Positions 8,128-17,572 of a stretch of 21,942 nucleotides of DNA are shown here, one piece after another. This DNA is from Candidatus Odinarchaeia archaeon. GTDB lineage: Archaea > Asgardarchaeota > Odinarchaeia > Odinarchaeales > Odinarchaeaceae. The position numbers and the translations under genes were made by a program. Under the pieces are notes generated by a model that saw only the letters and a program-made list of their open reading frames with translations, made no database searches and was not told the DNA's origin. The stretch spans positions 1-21,942 of the forward strand of contig JAHQXC010000014.1 in assembly GCA_029856525.1 (NCBI GenBank), read 5' to 3'. Within the stretch, counting starts at the first letter, position 1; each line of letters opens with the position of its first letter.

Positions 8128-9057
8128 TTGGATATTCTAGTAACAGGGGGTTGTGGATTCATAGGATCAAACTTAGCTTGCGCTCTTGTAGAAAAAGGCT
8201 ATAATGTGCACGTGTTAGATAATCTTTCAAACGGTAAACTTGAGAATATTAAAGAATATCTTGGTAATATAATATTTTGGAGAGGGGATGTGACTGATAA
8301 AAATTATGTTGATAATATTATATCTCGGGTTGACGCTGTTTATCATCTAGCAGCTCAGGTAAGTGTTGCAGCTTCTATTAAAGAGCCTGTAAAAGATGCA
8401 GCGGTGAATATCGGAGGGACCTTGAATATTTTACAAGCGGCTTCAACCTACCGGATTAAGAAAATAATTTATTATTCATCTGCAGCCGTCTACGGGGAGC
8501 CTGTTTATCTTCCAATCGATGAAAAACATCCTAAAAACCCTTTAAGCCCTTATGGTTTAAGCAAGCTTACAGGTGAGAAATATGCTGAATTCTACAGTAA
8601 ATTCTACGGGTTGAATATAGTTATCATACGCCCCTTCAATGTTTACGGTCCTAAACAGGATCCGCGCAACCCTTACACAGGAGTTATATCCACGTTTCTA
8701 GATAAAGCTTTACGCGGGGAGAGTATCCCCATCTACGGGGATGGGAGTCAATCCAGGGATTTCATCTACGTTGACGATCTAGTGGATTTATCTATTAAAA
8801 TACTTTCGAAGAATACTCCTCAATTCATCGCGTTAAACGGTGCATGCGGTGAGAGAACCACGATAAAAAGTTTAGCTGAGAGAATAAAAGAGTTAACAGG
8901 CTCTAATTCAAAAATAATATTTCTACCTAGAAGGGAAGGAGAAATCTATGAGAGCTACGCGGATATATCTGTTGCAAAACAGCTTTTAGATTTCAAACCC
9001 GTTTATAAAATAGACGATGGCTTAAAAAAACTTATAGAGTATTTTAAACGCGGATAA
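8128..9057 (+). CDS. Extended SDR NAD-dependent 4-epimerase, probably accepting UDP-GlcNAc/GalNAc (PelX/WbpP-like)
   Basis: TGGCGFIGS, SSAAVYG, YGLSK, FNVYGP. RREGEIYESYAD has Ser at the gatekeeper position. TTG start with RBS AGGAGGAG. Confidence 0.85.
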   Translation: MDILVTGGCGFIGSNLACALVEKGYNVHVLDNLSNGKLENIKEYLGNIIFWRGDVTDKNYVDNIISRVDAVYHLAAQVSVAASIKEPVKDAAVNIGGTLNILQAASTYRIKKIIYYSSAAVYGEPVYLPIDEKHPKNPLSPYGLSKLTGEKYAEFYSKFYGLNIVIIRPFNVYGPKQDPRNPYTGVISTFLDKALRGESIPIYGDGSQSRDFIYVDDLVDLSIKILSKNTPQFIALNGACGERTTIKSLAERIKELTGSNSKIIFLPRREGEIYESYADISVAKQLLDFKPVYKIDDGLKKLIEYFKRG

Positions 9058-9102: not shown

Positions 9103-10185
9103 GTGTCAAGCTCTGAAAACCTGCATTCAGATGAAAGCTTAGAATTAGAGAATATTCTAAACACCAGCTTCGACATAAAAATATACGATTACATGGTTAT
9201 ACACCGCCACGGCTATTCTATAATAAACGAGAAGCTTACATCAACGAAAATAGATTTAGATCTCACATCCGGATTGATTTCAGCGATAGTCTTAGCTTCA
9301 AAAGAACTTTTCAATACAGGTAAAGGGTTAAAAATACTAGACTTCGGTAATAATAGCATTGTATTAAGCTCCGGAGAGTATCTTATCATAGGTGTGATTA
9401 CAGAGTTTATAACAAGCGATCTTAAAAAATATTTAAAAGATTTACTAGAATATGTTGAACGGAAATACGCTCTTCTACTATCCGCGTGGACTGGTAACCT
9501 GGATGAAATCAAAACTGTGACAGAGATTATTTCAAAGGCGTTAACACCTTACATAATCCGGGAATTCAAATTTAATAAAGAGCTTAAATCGAAGGAAATA
9601 AACGAGAGCATGCTATTCAACATACGTGAACTTGATAAGATCACTATTAAAAATATTATCGACTTAGCCGGCGGCTTATCCTGTAAAATAGACGAGGGTA
9701 AAATTCTCTCGCTCTGCCGGCTTCTATGCAGTGATGCTTTAAGCTTCACAGAGCTGGAAAGCCTTCTCAACGTTGACAGAGATGTTTTAAAAGAGCTTCT
9801 ATCACGAATATCTAGTTTAGGAGTTCTACGAGTCTATAAGAAAACTAGTTTAAGAAAACTGTTAACACCTAAAACTAATATTAAAATAGCTTCACCTTCA
9901 GACTACGCTTTAAATATTTCTAAAATAGAGAGTAGTGATAGAGGTGCAGAGGTTGATTTCAAACTTGTGTTAGCTGATGATATTAAACCCGGAGGCGCGG
10001 TGATAGTCCCGGTTGTATTAGCGATGGTTAAAAGCGGGGAGATCATCATCCCTTATTTCATGAAGAATATTGAGAAATTGAGAGAGATAATCGGAAAAGA
10101 TGTTTTAAAAGAGGCGTTAAACGTTCAAGATAACCGTGATATAACGCTTCTGAAAACAATAAAGAAAATTGATTCACTATGGTGA
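9103..10185 (+). CDS. Longin/roadblock-like N-terminal domain plus winged-helix-like domain protein
   Basis: YMVIHRHGYSII...DLDLTSGLISAIVLASKELF...LKILDFGNNSIVL resembles Asgard longin/roadblock domains. LLCSDALSFTELESLLNVDRDVLKELLSRISSLGVLRV resembles a wHTH. RBS GAGGGGGAGG. Confidence 0.6.
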   Translation: MSSSENLHSDESLELENILNTSFDIKIYDYMVIHRHGYSIINEKLTSTKIDLDLTSGLISAIVLASKELFNTGKGLKILDFGNNSIVLSSGEYLIIGVITEFITSDLKKYLKDLLEYVERKYALLLSAWTGNLDEIKTVTEIISKALTPYIIREFKFNKELKSKEINESMLFNIRELDKITIKNIIDLAGGLSCKIDEGKILSLCRLLCSDALSFTELESLLNVDRDVLKELLSRISSLGVLRVYKKTSLRKLLTPKTNIKIASPSDYALNISKIESSDRGAEVDFKLVLADDIKPGGAVIVPVVLAMVKSGEIIIPYFMKNIEKLREIIGKDVLKEALNVQDNRDITLLKTIKKIDSLW

Positions 10186-10197
10186 ACGGTGCGGTAA

Positions 10198-10596
10198 ATG
10201 CCACAAGGAGTCCTCTTAATAGGCTGGAGTCTAGAGGAGGGGCCTGTTATAGAAGCTAAGTATCCTGACTGGCTTCCAGATTTCAGTAAAGAGGCTATAG
10301 CGATATTTAACGCGCATAGTGCAGGCTGCAGAAAATCAGGTGCAATGTTTCTGAGCATGCCGAGTGTTAAAGTAGTCAGCTACTATACAGGATTACAGAT
10401 AAATAAAGTTGTTTCAGTGATACTAGATAGAGCTGAGCATCCAGCGCCGTTTATGGAGGCTCTCGAAGGCTTAATAAACGAGTGTTTAAAAAACGGAGTA
10501 GATTTTAAATATGAAATACTTCCTAAAATATATAAAAGACTCGAGAAAATCGGGAGAGCTCAAACCGCGGTTGATAAAATTATTAGATTATTCTAA
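10198..10596 (+). CDS. Stand-alone longin (uDENN/NPRL2-type) domain protein
   Basis: GVLLIGWSLEEGPVIEAKYP matches the beta1-GP-beta2-P pattern of uDENN/NPR2-type longins; 132 aa with a beta-rich core and C-terminal helices. Confidence 0.55.
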   Translation: MPQGVLLIGWSLEEGPVIEAKYPDWLPDFSKEAIAIFNAHSAGCRKSGAMFLSMPSVKVVSYYTGLQINKVVSVILDRAEHPAPFMEALEGLINECLKNGVDFKYEILPKIYKRLEKIGRAQTAVDKIIRLF

Positions 10597-10607
10597 GAGG
10601 TTTTCAT

Positions 10608-11336
10608 ATGAGTTTAACACCCGATAATTGCCGTGTGAAAACGGGGATAAAAGGCTTCGATGAACTTATCAAAGGCGGCTTCCCTACTGTGGGAACCTAC
10701 CTTGTGACAGGGACATCTGGAACAGGGAAAACCCTTTTCGGAATAGAGTTTATTTATAAAGGTATAACGTTATTCGATGAACCGGGGATTTTCATCACAA
10801 TGGATGAGCCGCCTGACAAGCTTCGAGCTCACGTTAAAATGTCATTCGGCTGGGATCTTGAACAGCTTGAAAATGAAGGTAAACTAGCGATTGTTGACGC
10901 GATAAGCTCAAGGGTTTCAGCTCCTTCAAACGAGAAATATATTCTGAGAAGAGGGGAAATAGACAGTCTATTATATAAAACAGCGAATATTATAGGAGAG
11001 CTTGGGGCTAAAAGAGTTGTGTTAGATTCAATAGTATCCTTAGCCTACCAGTATGATAGTATATTCGATTTAAGAAGAGATATTCAAAGGTTATGTTATG
11101 GTATAAGCCAGCTTAACTGTACATTTCTAATAACCACAGAGGTTCCCAGCGGCTCAGATCGTTTAAGCAGATTTGATATAGAAGAATTCGTGGTGGACGG
11201 TATCATCTTGTTAAAACTTGATAAAGTAAACGATATGAACGTTAGAAGATTGATGATAGTAAAGATGAGGGGAACAGAGCATGATATGAAAGAGCATGTA
11301 TTCAATATAACTAGGGATGGGATCATAGTAGAGTAA
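10608..11336 (+). CDS. Single-domain KaiC-like (COG0467) ATPase
   Basis: TGIKGFDELIKGG, Walker A GTSGTGKT, Walker B VVLDS, IEEFVVDGII, RRLMIVKMRGT. Confidence 0.9.
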   Translation: MSLTPDNCRVKTGIKGFDELIKGGFPTVGTYLVTGTSGTGKTLFGIEFIYKGITLFDEPGIFITMDEPPDKLRAHVKMSFGWDLEQLENEGKLAIVDAISSRVSAPSNEKYILRRGEIDSLLYKTANIIGELGAKRVVLDSIVSLAYQYDSIFDLRRDIQRLCYGISQLNCTFLITTEVPSGSDRLSRFDIEEFVVDGIILLKLDKVNDMNVRRLMIVKMRGTEHDMKEHVFNITRDGIIVE

Positions 11337-11359
11337 TATATTTTTACACGGGGATATTA

Positions 11360-14300: not shown

Positions 14301-15253
14301 TACCGAATATATTCCTTTTATGTTTTATAGGAGCGTATAAGGCTTTAAACAAGCTGCATATAGTCGCCGCTGTCTATCTTACCGCTATAGCTTCGATGAT
14401 AGTGGTTTCCTTATATACGTCTTACTACACAGGTTTACTCGGTGTCATATCCTCTTATAGTATAAGTCTTATTTTAGCATGTGTTTTCCTAGCAGTCTAC
14501 CTTTTTAACCGTGTTCTTAAACCTGGTGGGCTGCCGTTAATTGAACCCGTCTTCTATACTAAACTGTTTAAAGAATCTGGTTTCAATTTGAAAGCTATTA
14601 TTTTAGGCGGTTTAATAATCAACCTGTTCATGTTAACAAGCTACCTGGTTTGGTTCATTTACGGCTGGAGTGTGACCGGTTATAGTGTGCTCTTGAACTC
14701 TCAGCTTCAAACACCGATAGTTATCTTCCAGTTAACTGTTTTCCCTGTGATAGGTGTAGCCGGGCTTTTAATTCGAAGGGTTGAAGAATACCTTAACGAG
14801 TTTAGTCGTCAGAAACTGTCTAAGAGGAAGGAGGCTGTGAACGCTTATAAAGATGTTTTAAAAGCTTATAGAAGACTGATTATAGGCGTCTCCGCCACCG
14901 CGATTATAACAGTCACACCTATCTCATATTTTTTGAAGGAGATTCTCTCATTCTTCAACCTTACTTTAAATATCACTTTGATAGATGTTGCCGCGCTTGC
15001 AGTGGGCTGGGTGTTATTCTCAATTCTTTTAGCTCAAATATTGTTTACAGCGATGATCAGTCTTAAATCAGGTTGTCTCAGCTTAATTATAGCTGTAGCT
15101 TTAACTCTTATCATATCTTTCACTCTACTTTTAACAGGTTTCTTAACCGCGTATACGAGTATTTTAACAGGGTTCGCAGCCGGTTTAACAGCGGCTTTAT
15201 TCTACTCGACGTTAATTGTTTTAAGAAGATTAAAACAGGTTTCACGGTTTTAG
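11360..15253 (+). CDS. Membrane-anchored polysaccharide deacetylase (PelA-DA-like) fused to a PelG-like multi-TM exporter
   Basis: Signal peptide and GATase-like/ThuA-like segment (YLENGGSIIG). CE4-like motifs TVDQD (about 12224), HSVTH (12440-12454) and LLWHD (about 12878). Ig-like segment and about 28 N-x-S/T sequons by hand count. The last ~440 aa are highly hydrophobic and start with a PelG-like pattern (GLFAATPLVFNL...YGLDYLTRKY). Confidence 0.65.
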   Translation: MTKIRRLTILLLLFLIIPFIFQPVKITGQPVSGVPFEVKPVGIVFSNLSLSWKQVGYDNSNISAPVILPFYVVESHIYMAGLRFEVLPEENITSSGVLERYSCIILPENTYISNSSRLTLLNYYREYLENGGSIIGFGYIGVKDENNTFYANRDLFWRELFNVKDNGFLNLSYSIKTLSHPITADYSLNTTIHSGGFGLDNITVNSTLINTQPFLKAVANETGVFLTYCGFASQIGAGRSVFINVYDLGLNPWFDRSTLLLKALQWCIFRDYPAIALQPTSGRLTWIFTVDQDWCFATVNTTNALRRLLTLADTYYFTFGWAIISEGPVKQSGEFYGFINWSACKPLFLEAYRKGNDLASHSVTHVYWDLTPVTDLRVLNELNLSKHQIEGNLSIPVTGLQVWGPGIWFSRYNASVYLPQVGYQYVTELSVEDFPYLMGWEFYYSGGGNIDFNKTVFVLFRQSYSDHNYFSPTQMNLNWSRAWEIERRNFDDAYRIGNGMPYTLLWHDYSIDNSSRLPLLYNILDYELWQRRDVYTCTPYEYYHRIQAHDMMKYNVTYYSNNTIRINLDTRSVSDEYLDYIAGQMIRFDNLSLYVKTVRIDSQEYLAYSNNTVILPKLTRGVHTITVTLDSQPSNQPHIIGCTAGGPVVASSTSEFFAFNFTSPKQRIGRVLVELNNTPVTIFVNRTLTDKWFYDGKTLILALNISGDTLIEVYYSRRFTASILNVDKRIYFPSDPVIVNYTLTNSYPFPLNLKIKAVISASNISLGESETVLTIGAGREYNGLITVQPQSGWPSTNLNVEIKVISGYAVLYSTSSVGGVYVYWFNGELLIASLSFIAVFTVIIAFTNRFIGSEKIKKIGGFFINGLFAATPLVFNLGLVLLLGYHYSQILNPVETNILALIYSIIIPVAFTFYGLDYLTRKYTLEAALSEDSALTKKYVKQSLLTSFYISITVTIVLLLFSIFTGLISLETVLPALICIIPNIFLLCFIGAYKALNKLHIVAAVYLTAIASMIVVSLYTSYYTGLLGVISSYSISLILACVFLAVYLFNRVLKPGGLPLIEPVFYTKLFKESGFNLKAIILGGLIINLFMLTSYLVWFIYGWSVTGYSVLLNSQLQTPIVIFQLTVFPVIGVAGLLIRRVEEYLNEFSRQKLSKRKEAVNAYKDVLKAYRRLIIGVSATAIITVTPISYFLKEILSFFNLTLNITLIDVAALAVGWVLFSILLAQILFTAMISLKSGCLSLIIAVALTLIISFTLLLTGFLTAYTSILTGFAAGLTAALFYSTLIVLRRLKQVSRF

Positions 15254-16255
15254 AGGGTAACCGCAGTAAGGGCAGAATTTGAAGTCGCGTTTTACAAGTC
15301 TTTTACATTTAACGCATAAAAGGTTGGGTAGATCTGTAAAACAGTAGGGGCAGATCTTCATATGAGGCTGGATCGTCGACTTACATTTATAGCATTCGAC
15401 GAGCATGCTAGTTTTTAAGCCGTCTGATTCTTTAACCTGTGATTTAATTTTTTTAATAGTGTCAGATTTCTTTAAACCTAATTGTTTACGTATAAGCTCG
15501 ACGGGCACTCCTCTAATCAACTGCAAGTATATAAAAGTGTTTCTAAGGGTTTGCGGGGTAATCTTATAGGGTATACTGCAGGTTTTAGAAAGCTTCTCCG
15601 TGATATTCTTGAATATAAAGTTTAGGGTTGCGTAGCTTAACTTATCATGGGCTTTATTAACGCCGGTTGAGAAGATTAGGTCATCTTCTTTTAAATAGCT
15701 TTTAGAATTGATGTAATCTGTAAGATAGGTTTGAACTATATCTGGAAGGTTTAAAACTCTATAAGGTGGGAGAGGGGACATTATAATCGACTGTTCGAAA
15801 ATATTCTTTTTACGTAGATTAATAAGCTCAGATGTTCTAATACCTGTCTCCGTGAATAATGCGATGATAACTCTGTCACGCGGGTTATCTGTGCATTCGT
15901 ATAATGCTTTAAGCTGTTCTACGCTGAGGAAGCAGGGTTCTCTTATAGGATAAGATTTAGGATAGGTTACTTTCACGTTCAAGCCGAGCTCTCTTAGAAA
16001 ACGTTGAATAACGCGACTGTAGCGTGTAACGGTGGATGGTTTTTTACCCTGGTTTAAAAGGTTTATCTGCCAGTCTTGTATGTCGACGTCTTCTACTTGT
16101 TTAAGATCTTTACCGTTAATTTTTTTTAAAAAAAGTTTTAGAATTTTAACCTCGCCTTCAATCGTTGACTCTGATTTACCCTGCTCGCCTAGTGTTTTAA
16201 TGTATTTTTCAACGTAAACGTTTTCTTTAAAAGACATGTTATTAAAATTAACCAT
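15242..16255 (-). CDS. Xer-like tyrosine recombinase fold with degenerate active site and C-terminal double zinc ribbon
   Basis: ETGIRTSELINL and ITPQTLRNTF, LGL in place of LGH, and no catalytic Tyr. C-terminus CYKC..CPYC..CVKC..CPYCG. Overlaps the convergent gene by 12 bp. Confidence 0.85.
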   Translation of the reverse strand: MVNFNNMSFKENVYVEKYIKTLGEQGKSESTIEGEVKILKLFLKKINGKDLKQVEDVDIQDWQINLLNQGKKPSTVTRYSRVIQRFLRELGLNVKVTYPKSYPIREPCFLSVEQLKALYECTDNPRDRVIIALFTETGIRTSELINLRKKNIFEQSIIMSPLPPYRVLNLPDIVQTYLTDYINSKSYLKEDDLIFSTGVNKAHDKLSYATLNFIFKNITEKLSKTCSIPYKITPQTLRNTFIYLQLIRGVPVELIRKQLGLKKSDTIKKIKSQVKESDGLKTSMLVECYKCKSTIQPHMKICPYCFTDLPNLLCVKCKRLVKRDFKFCPYCGYPLKP

Positions 16256-16261
16256 AAAACT

Positions 16262-17572
16262 TTAATAAATTTTAGGTTTCCCTGAGAGATTGAAGTAAAC
16301 TTTACGATAAGCGTTTATAAACAGGCTCTCTGAGAAACGGTTAACTATTCTCTCTCTAGCTTTTAAACCGGCTTCACGTTTATACTCAGGGTTTCGTAGA
16401 TAGAATAATATGGATTTAGCCATCAACTTATATTCACCAGGGTTTACAAGTAATCCGCATTCGTCTACAGGTTCTGGGACCCCTCCCACTCTTGTAGCTA
16501 CTACAGGTATGCCGGCGCTCATCGCTTCAAGTAAAGCTAGAGGCTGAGCTTCAGATATGCTTGAAAGAGCGAAGACATGGAATCTAGAATATAATTTCTC
16601 GGGCGTGTATGTTTCAGGTAGGATGTGAAAGTGGTCTTCTAATCCGAGTTCTTCTATTAAAGCTACGGTTTCGTTATAGTAGTCTAAGTCTTCTTTCGGA
16701 CCGATGAACTCGAATCGAACATTAGGCTGCTTATCCACTACAAGGCGGGCTGCTTTAATCAGTGTTTTAACATCTTTTATAGGGTTTAATCTAGCTACGG
16801 TTCCAACTGTTAACTCTTCACTCTGCTCGCCGTCCTTGTTTCCGGTGAAAAGATTATAATCGACGCCGTTAGGTATAGGCTTAATCTTCTTATAATCTGC
16901 TCCAAGCTTCAATTCAATTGGGATGTGAGCTCCGGTAACCGGGGCTATTATATCAGCTGATTTAAAAGAGAATTCTACGAGTTTACCTATGAATTTAAGC
17001 AGTCTAATCTGAGTGTGGTCTTCTGGTTTTAATATTTTAGGGTGGCGTAGTTCATCGGGGAAATCTACTCTGCTAAGTCTTAGAACCCATTCTTTATAAT
17101 ATGATCCGTGCTCGGTGACTATTACAGGTTTATTATATATTCGCTTAGCTAGACCTGCGATTAAACCAGCGTAACCCGCGTTTAAAGCATGGTAGACGTC
17201 TGCTTCAGGGATCGGTACGTTGAAAACTCTCTCTAAGGGTTTTATGAATCCTTCATTCAAATATGTGTTTGTTTGAAAACGTGAGGCTTCAGCTTGAAAA
17301 AACTGTTTAATTTTTCTAGCTGAATCATTCTCGCATGGTTGAATGCCTTGCTCGCTAGACTCAGAGTTGAAGTCCTCCCATATAGGATGTAAGTATACTT
17401 CTTTAACGTTTTTAGGAGGCTTATAATTAAATTTTATTCTTCTATCAGGGGTTAGGGAGATTATCTCGAACTCTACATCCGGCATCTTAGATATTAAGGT
17501 ATGTGTCCATTTGCTGACTCCGCCTATTGAAAGCGGATAGGTGCCTTCTGTGATCAAGCAGACCTTAGTCAT
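16262..17572 (-). CDS. pelF: GT4-family glycosyltransferase PelF (DUF3492 + GT-B)
   Basis: VCLITEGTYPLSIGGVSKWTHTLI, YHALNAGYAG, VTEHGSYYKE and SSISEAQPLALLEA closely follow PelF signature motifs. Confidence 0.8.
   Translation of the reverse strand: MTKVCLITEGTYPLSIGGVSKWTHTLISKMPDVEFEIISLTPDRRIKFNYKPPKNVKEVYLHPIWEDFNSESSEQGIQPCENDSARKIKQFFQAEASRFQTNTYLNEGFIKPLERVFNVPIPEADVYHALNAGYAGLIAGLAKRIYNKPVIVTEHGSYYKEWVLRLSRVDFPDELRHPKILKPEDHTQIRLLKFIGKLVEFSFKSADIIAPVTGAHIPIELKLGADYKKIKPIPNGVDYNLFTGNKDGEQSEELTVGTVARLNPIKDVKTLIKAARLVVDKQPNVRFEFIGPKEDLDYYNETVALIEELGLEDHFHILPETYTPEKLYSRFHVFALSSISEAQPLALLEAMSAGIPVVATRVGGVPEPVDECGLLVNPGEYKLMAKSILFYLRNPEYKREAGLKARERIVNRFSESLFINAYRKVYFNLSGKPKIY

Follow-up and report, generated by a model that had tools for sequence, protein, structure and literature searches.

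The closest described counterparts of the gene trio analyzed here are the NPRL2-NPRL3 longin pair of the GATOR1/SEACIT complexes, the longin proteins of Asgard archaea and the KaiC-like ATPases of archaea and cyanobacteria. The trio (P0001, P0002 and P0003) occupies positions 9103-11336 of a 21,942-nucleotide (nt) stretch of DNA (hereinafter the window) from an Odinarchaeial genome (Candidatus Odinarchaeia archaeon, contig C119 of the assembly G000; 1.32 Mb, 93% complete) and codes for two predicted longin-type proteins followed by a KaiC-like ATPase. The longin protein NPRL2 has a catalytic arginine, and the single-domain archaeal KaiC-like proteins given as examples by Makarova, Galperin and Koonin in 2017 reportedly include PH0186, ArlH, CirA and GvpD. 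Archaeal KaiC-like ATPases have been proposed to act as signaling hubs (Makarova et al. 2017, as cited in PMC5847659). In haloarchaea, the P-loop NTPase GvpD binds the adjacently encoded regulator GvpE and lowers its levels in a P-loop-dependent manner (PMC4390858). For Asgard archaea, longins resembling NPRL2 have been described that occur by themselves as well as in fusions with prokaryotic signaling domains (Liu et al., bioRxiv 10.1101/2020.10.19.343400). As Asgard longin, roadblock and small GTPase genes generally do not lie in shared operons (PMC10933270), the partners of the Asgard longins are mostly unknown. We found no paper linking KaiC and longin domains, the partner lists of Makarova 2017 having been left unchecked.

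All three genes lie on the + strand and tile the interval 9103-11336 with spacers of 12 nt (P0001-P0002) and 11 nt (P0002-P0003), which contain Shine-Dalgarno-like GGTG and GAGGT motifs. The first gene, P0001 (9103-10185, +), has a GTG start and codes for a 360-amino-acid (aa) protein with a predicted longin domain, a putatively NPRL-like winged helix and a C-terminal domain. P0002 (10198-10596, +; 132 aa) is a stand-alone NPRL2/FLCN-type longin protein as judged by an AlphaFold2 model and its structural matches, and P0003 (10608-11336, +; 242 aa) is a single-domain KaiC-like ATPase of the RecA superfamily (Pfam PF06745). Since they are conserved at the protein level in relatives, with identities among orthologs of 27-79%, 34-77% and 60-90%, respectively, we take all three to be real genes. 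The far higher conservation of the KaiC-like protein is what one would expect of a core enzyme whose partners adapt. The order of the trio is invariant, its genes are tightly coupled, it persists in genomes lacking pel-like genes, and part of it is jointly duplicated; hence, on this comparative genomic evidence, we predict it to be a self-contained KaiC-longin module that is specific to Odinarchaeia, with P0002 and the KaiC-like ATPase as its core. As the trio is invariant and tightly coupled in all Odinarchaeia genomes examined, the most economical reading is that of a longin pair working with the KaiC-like ATPase as a regulatory module, and we favor this reading, if only tentatively.

We searched 400 Asgard genomes; in what follows, g1 denotes the genus of the window, and f2 another family belonging to its order. 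The closest relatives of the trio proteins come from Odinarchaeia, Candidatus Odinarchaeum yellowstonii LCB_4 among them: word-indexed homolog searches recovered Odinarchaeial relatives (six for P0001) and a few weak matches from Thorarchaeota. Full-length P0001 is found in 7 of the 400 genomes, all of them Odinarchaeia, four from g1 (G000, G301-G303) and three from f2 (G298-G300). The trio is also present in six further metagenomic populations, with the loci L002/3, L004, L005, L006/7 and L008-10, while L001 is the locus of G303. In every case found, the order is P0001-P0002-KaiC on a single strand with intergenic gaps of 2-50 nt, and the conservation of the neighborhood that the initial annotation had asked about thus holds in 7 of 7 Odinarchaeia species genomes searched. 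No trio was found outside Odinarchaeia in the 400 genomes. A tree of the KaiC-like proteins rooted with a paralog resolves three deep lineages, though not their branching order. Further, one f2 genome (G299, contig C64) carries a duplicate P0002-KaiC pair (L124:3430-5694) without P0001, which is followed on the same strand by a rhodanese-domain gene and has no polysaccharide genes nearby. As this pair was duplicated without P0001 or pel-like genes, we regard P0002-KaiC as the tightest functional unit of the module.

P0003 matches Pfam PF06745 at E 1.5e-72 with 244.2 bits (cut-off 26.6), and its best matches in the PDB are the CI domain of cyanobacterial KaiC (166 bits, as against 57 bits for CII) and the archaeal single-domain protein PH0186. 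Its Walker A motif GTSGTGKT (10710-10733, +; aa 35-42) aligns with the KaiC P-loop, and likewise its Walker B, catalytic glutamate and arginine finger align with those of KaiC CI. Across 10 sequences G38, T39, G40 and K41 of the Walker A motif, along with E67, D140 and R221, are invariant, and the D66-E67 dyad is conserved. Since all orthologs retain Walker A, D66-E67, D140 and R221, P0003 is expected to be an active ATPase. These observations uphold the earlier identification of a single-domain KaiC ATPase, and its catalytic motifs are intact. The genome codes for one other KaiC-like protein (C4:670-1410), which matches the P-loop domain of GvpD (Pfam PF07088, E 4.6e-07).

P0003 was also considered as a clock KaiC, and this was rejected: it has one domain, falls short of the cut-off of the NCBIfam model circ_KaiC (172 versus 546 bits), scores below the cut-off of every archaeal KaiC subfamily in NCBIfam, and is not accompanied by a KaiB above cut-off anywhere in the genome. 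The initial annotation had drawn attention to a pair of glutamates at positions matching the KaiC phosphosites. The motif is indeed there: E192-E193 (11181-11186, +) aligns with the 'VEEF' of KaiC CI and with the region of S431 in CII. E192 is invariant, while E193 is a glutamine (EQ) in the f2 orthologs, and the paralog C4:670-1410 has EE. As the EE pair is present in KaiC CI and in the genome's own paralog and is replaced by EQ in f2, it is a trait of the family, namely an ordinary CI motif, rather than a phosphomimic specific to this locus.

The case for P0002 comes from structure. Scans against Pfam (E up to 10) and NCBIfam (E up to 1) listed no longin family, and its assignment to the longin fold is thus one by predicted structure without a curated-family sequence match. 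An AlphaFold2 model built from a 39-sequence alignment has a mean predicted local distance difference test score (pLDDT) of 93.4 and shows the element order β-β-α-β-β-β-α-α, with strands at residues 2-11, 15-22, 48-53, 58-63 and 71-76, and helices at 30-42, 82-98 and 107-131. The best 50 Foldseek matches of this model are longin or roadblock proteins without exception. In VIA-align comparisons it matches NPRL2 (Z 11.3), the Lokiarchaeal longin 8yqg (Z 11.0), FLCN (Z 10.9), C9orf72 (Z 10.0) and DENND1B (Z 9.4), with VAMP7, Sec22b and Ykt6 likewise within the range of Z 9-11.3 seen for solved longins. A fold search of the Atlas recovered eukaryotic Npr2 at a template modeling (TM) score of 0.70-0.72 and Asgard longin-Arf fusions at TM 0.77. 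Hence, the longin fold proposed earlier for this protein is well supported by the model; the label 'uDENN-type' given with it is acceptable, but NPRL2/FLCN-type is more precise.

An exhaustive HMMER search placed 34 representative clusters in the P0002 family at E <= 0.001, and many of its members constitute the N-terminal domain of ~360-aa proteins with a winged helix. The window's genome has four further paralogs of P0002, none of which adjoins a KaiC gene. Elsewhere in this genome (L019:6063-6847, contig C14), a PAC2-family gene is followed by adjacent open reading frames (ORFs) of 120 and 121 aa, of which the former has no Pfam match and the latter is a member of the P0002 longin family; these may represent another small pair.

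Scans of P0001 against Pfam and NCBIfam gave nothing meaningful. A full-length fold model built from 6 sequences is poor (pLDDT 44.5). In its N-terminal domain (aa ~19-157; 9157-9573, +), the pLDDT is 25-45, yet the order of elements is the β-β-α-β-β-β-α-α of the longin fold, albeit at low confidence, and solved structures cover residues 21-104 at low Z, amounting to weak matches. A profile of this domain (residues ~18-157) recovers five paralogs encoded in this genome (E 4.5e-28 to 8.8e-08). Among these, C85:5662-6573 (L031; E 2.2e-11) is a 303-aa fusion of a longin to an Arf-like GTPase, which matches Pfam Fuz_longin_1 with 27.7 bits (cut-off 26.1) and the Arf-like family at E 6.4e-24, while C11:12949-13428 (E 8.8e-08) reaches 23.9 bits against the same Fuz_longin_1 cut-off and also matches Sybindin and Intu_longin_1. 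A feature search pointed to Roadblock/Fuz_longin clusters at 0.87, which we treat as a lead. Since the paralogs found by profile match Fuz_longin_1, the N-terminal domain of P0001 is, by transitive homology, a predicted longin, as had been surmised from the sequence at the outset. One and the same longin subtype is thereby seen in both an Arf fusion and a KaiC cassette within this genome. Taken by itself, the P0001-type longin domain is present in 327 of the 400 Asgard genomes, often in proteins of 700-1900 aa, and the latter (e.g., L050, L053 and L054) sometimes contain several copies of it.

The middle region of P0001 (aa ~158-255; 9574-9867, +) is better modeled, at pLDDT 70-88, and forms the winged helix foreseen by the initial annotation. 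Against 48,161 representative chains, its best matches are 8adl_S of the yeast SEA complex (Z 8.3) and 8fw5_C of GATOR1 (Z 7.9). In both chains the matched stretch is the winged helix that comes after their longin domain, and their N-terminal parts are matched by the longin model of P0002. The margin of these matches over the next best is 1.5-1.9, with a Z of ~8 being near the stated noise level of the tool; thus, the model is suggestive of an NPRL2/NPRL3-like winged helix in P0001. The C-terminal domain (aa ~256-360; 9868-10185, +) is kept in all orthologs, which share the invariant residues P303, A307, P317, R327 and W360; its fold is unplaced, with no family, structural or feature-search match. 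It is missing from paralogs of ~230 aa that consist of a longin and a winged helix. One such paralog (L029:5148-5837, on contig C118 of G000) is a 229-aa protein corresponding to the longin and winged-helix parts of P0001, with relatives in L042-L045, and such a two-part layout also occurs in 230-260-aa proteins of several other Asgard families.

Building on these folds and families, and on the order, distribution and independence from pel-like genes of the trio, we infer a mechanism in which P0001 and P0002 would pair through their longin domains, in the manner of NPRL2-NPRL3 and other longin dimers. This pair would associate with a hexameric P0003, whose ATP-bound or hydrolyzing state could be either read or set by the longin platform, and the output might then proceed through the winged helix and the C-terminal domain of P0001. 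In most Odinarchaeia, the main target would probably be the adjacent surface-polysaccharide machinery, comprising P0004, the epimerase and the PelF-like transferase described below, with the module also being able to work without polysaccharide genes. The absence of an obvious GTPase is in keeping with the earlier remark that the window has no small GTPase: none is seen among its ORFs, the 13 Arf-family matches of the genome all lie on other contigs, and none was found within ~5 kb of the trio in the related loci that were read. In a stronger form of the idea, a longin pair akin to NPRL2/NPRL3 would have a RecA-type KaiC ATPase as its direct target and would read or set the nucleotide state of that ATPase; this we consider unlikely. 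A prediction of the three-chain complex of P0001, P0002 and the KaiC-like protein (9-10-row alignments, KaiC scored) returned an ipSAE of 0.00 in both runs and speaks neither for nor against such an assembly.

Several points weigh against the longin pair as a partner of the ATPase. The longin domain of P0001 has been assigned solely by way of transitive homology and a low-confidence model, and a profile-profile comparison of P0001 with the P0002 family detected no relation (probability <1%). To our knowledge, all solved longin dimers act on GTPases of the Ras superfamily; the RecA-type fold of KaiC is different, and the known docking geometry is not simply transferable to it. Moreover, among the 25 nearest non-Odinarchaeial relatives of the KaiC-like protein, none is encoded within 1.5 kb of a longin from either family, and among the 25 nearest non-Odinarchaeial relatives of P0002, none has a KaiC gene within the same distance; three more distant genes of the P0002 family also lack a KaiC neighbor. 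The pairing is limited to one small class, where it has the support of few independent lineages, namely three deep ones.

The winged helix invites a different reading, modeled on the GvpD-GvpE switch: P0001 would be a DNA-binding transcription factor with the longin as its sensor or dimerization domain, and the KaiC-like ATPase, with P0002 as an adaptor, would govern how active or stable it is, and through this the transcription of the neighboring genes. GvpD and GvpE offer a precedent for this, as they do for the longin-KaiC module (PMC4390858), showing that a P-loop NTPase of such a type can control an adjacent regulator. The segment comprising the helix and wing of P0001 is basic in 8 of 9 orthologs (net charge +3 to +7), a PDB profile search with the P0001 orthologs yielded weak matches to the MarR family (E 0.046-0.55) and weak HlyU profile matches were also seen, and longin-winged helix-turn-helix architectures of ~230 and ~360 aa are common in Asgard genomes. 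However, DNA-binding winged helices match the region at Z of at most 6.4 (ArsR, MarR and TFE structures at Z 5-6.4), as against the Z of 7.9-8.3 for the NPRL2/NPRL3-type winged helices, which do not bind DNA, and the putative recognition helix is poorly conserved, with only L229 and L233 being invariant; nor did an operator-like repeat come to notice, no search aimed at one having been made. We hence see a transcriptional switch of this kind as an improbable account of the trio.

A further alternative arises from the genes around the trio. Upstream, 45 nt 5' of P0001, lies a gene for an NAD-dependent sugar epimerase/dehydratase (8128-9057, +; Pfam Epimerase, E 2.3e-65). Downstream, P0004 (11360-15253, +), which codes for a 1297-aa membrane protein, starts 23 nt after the KaiC gene; beyond it lie, on the - strand, a gene for an integrase-like, double-zinc-ribbon protein (15242-16255) and a convergent gene for a PelF-like GT4 glycosyltransferase (16262-17572; NCBIfam PelF 194.7 bits, cut-off 100; Pfam DUF3492 and Glycos_transf_1). 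The two collinear BLASTP matches of the C-terminal membrane part of P0004 to the genome's own PelG are weak (E 1e-4 and 4e-4), and the Pfam PelG model does not match P0004 at E up to 1. The protein also has an 'HSVTH' motif with a marginal match to a carbohydrate esterase family 4 (CE4) deacetylase (E 0.05); its N-terminus resembles a signal anchor, N-x-S/T sequons are numerous, and the C-terminal part is multi-pass. In the 23-nt spacer between the KaiC gene and P0004 (11337-11359), a T5 tract at 11343-11347 stands right behind the stop codon; it could be a partial archaeal terminator, which would make co-transcription of the two genes uncertain.

The initial annotation had placed the cassette in a polysaccharide operon and suggested that it functionally replaces PelD and PelE. 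Cast as a rival to the module that we favor, the proposal is that the trio is a dedicated post-translational regulator of a Pel-like synthase, in place of PelE and of PelD, the receptor of cyclic di-GMP (c-di-GMP). The embedding does hold for two of the three deep lineages, where the trio is followed by P0004 with the epimerase and the PelF-like gene in the same block. P0004 directly follows the KaiC gene wherever it is present, at a distance of 19-100 nt in L001, L002, L004 and L005 and overlapping it by 11 nt in L006. The epimerase adjoins the trio in g1, L002, L004 and L006, with the contig of L005 beginning too near P0001 to show it. The lack of any detected GGDEF domain in the genome and the weakly PelG-like C-terminal part of P0004 also agree with a Pel regulator.

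The f2 lineage goes against such a dedicated role. Its three genomes (G298, G299 and G300; 78%, 91% and 82% complete) keep the trio, yet P0004 and the PelF-type DUF3492 have no match anywhere in them, and the epimerase is missing beside the trio. In f2, an RtcB gene on the opposite strand and a small ORF border the trio, which stands by itself and has its own upstream intergenic region of 326 nt. As the NUDIX, radical-SAM and ribonucleotide-reductase genes on its flanks are held in common, we take this to be the same ancestral locus. The duplicate P0002-KaiC pair beside the rhodanese gene likewise has no polysaccharide genes nearby, and conversely, a clearer Pel-like pair elsewhere in the window's genome (L092, C14:464-3604), in which a 532-aa Pfam PelG is encoded divergently from a 475-aa PelF (DUF3492, E 8.5e-62), has no longin-KaiC trio; a PelF-PelG pair is also present at L093:2851-6017. 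Thus, of the two PelF-type loci of the genus, only that of the window carries the trio, and even there the PelF-like gene lies on the opposite strand beyond the integrase-like gene. The initial annotation had itself named an occurrence of the cassette independent of pel-like genes, along with its separate transcription, as the finding that would speak against it, and such an occurrence is what is seen in f2. As f2 keeps the trio without pel-like genes and an extra P0002-KaiC pair exists, the trio does not appear to be a dedicated PelD/PelE substitute: it is often, but not always, found with sugar-polymer genes, and we hold a Pel-specific regulator to be unlikely. With regard to other genes of the neighborhood, the integrase-like zinc-ribbon gene is found at the same place in LCB_4 and L002/3 and is absent from the arrangement in L006. 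A gene for a metallo-beta-lactamase-fold protein with a Pfam match to the Anti-Pycsar protein Apyc1 is present in the syntenic block at L006:3026-3757 and L008:9743-10477 and missing from the window.

The last alternative, that the longin pair is a conventional GTPase-activating protein (GAP) or guanine nucleotide exchange factor (GEF) platform for a GTPase encoded elsewhere, with the KaiC-like protein being a mere co-regulated neighbor or an upstream input, can point to the fact that the solved structural neighbors of P0002 all act on Rag, Arf or Rab GTPases, to the fusion of a P0001-type longin to an Arf-like GTPase in the same genome (C85:5662-6573), to the 13 Arf-family matches of that genome and to an Arf-like GTPase ~5 kb 3' of the trio in the f2 loci, but it is the most doubtful of the readings considered here, as no locus has a GTPase gene in its conserved block and P0002 was duplicated together with KaiC and not with a GTPase. 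Since neither the 9 P0002 orthologs nor the P0001 longin domain have an invariant arginine, the position of the eukaryotic arginine not having been mapped structurally onto P0002, a conserved arginine-finger GAP mechanism is likewise unlikely.

Returning to the self-contained longin-KaiC module, what it offers is a concrete, invariant and thermostable set of three proteins that gives these orphan longins a testable partner. If the trio proteins bind each other, Asgard longins would not be regulators of GTPases only, the proposed KaiC hubs of archaea would gain a new class of partners, and a simple in vitro system would become available for the pre-eukaryotic role of an NPRL-like longin pair. 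Were the longin pair to act directly on the ATPase, the longin platform of Rag, Arf and Rab GTPases would be a more general partner of NTPases in Asgard archaea, and its restriction to small GTPases would be a later specialization. Even if they do not bind, the module would still serve as a marker of the lineage and as a likely regulator of archaeal surface polysaccharide.

In comparison with known systems, the trio resembles the PelD/PelE setting in lying among genes for a PelF-like transferase and a weakly PelG-like membrane protein, in a genome from which the c-di-GMP machinery appears to be absent, but it has no sequence or fold relationship to PelD or PelE and persists in genomes without pel-like genes. 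P0003 shares with cyanobacterial KaiC a strong match to CI, inclusive of the 'EEF' motif, while having one domain rather than two and no Ser/Thr phosphosites at the position equivalent to that in CII. With the proposed archaeal KaiC hubs it has in common a lone KaiC domain of the RecA type, in which both Walker motifs, the catalytic glutamate and the arginine finger are intact; it also follows the general scheme suggested for these hubs in that small partners and a winged-helix protein are encoded alongside. The difference is that its putative partners are of the longin fold, a class otherwise tied to small GTPases. The P0002 family and the widespread P0001-type longin fit the longin families described by Liu et al., although no link to a KaiC-like ATPase is made there (bioRxiv 10.1101/2020.10.19.343400) and the operon described here is confined to Odinarchaeia. 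A further parallel is NPRL2-NPRL3 of GATOR1/SEACIT: the best structural match of P0002 is the NPRL2 longin, P0001 has a predicted longin followed by a winged helix whose best matches lie in NPRL2/NPRL3-type chains, and the trio encodes two different longin proteins together. Unlike GATOR1/SEACIT, the trio proteins have no Pfam NPR2 or NPR3 match, their block has neither a DEPDC5 partner nor a Rag-type GTPase, P0002 has no invariant arginine and no C-terminal domain, and the longin heterodimer is a predicted one. The conserved putative partner of the longins in Odinarchaeia is a RecA-type KaiC-like ATPase.

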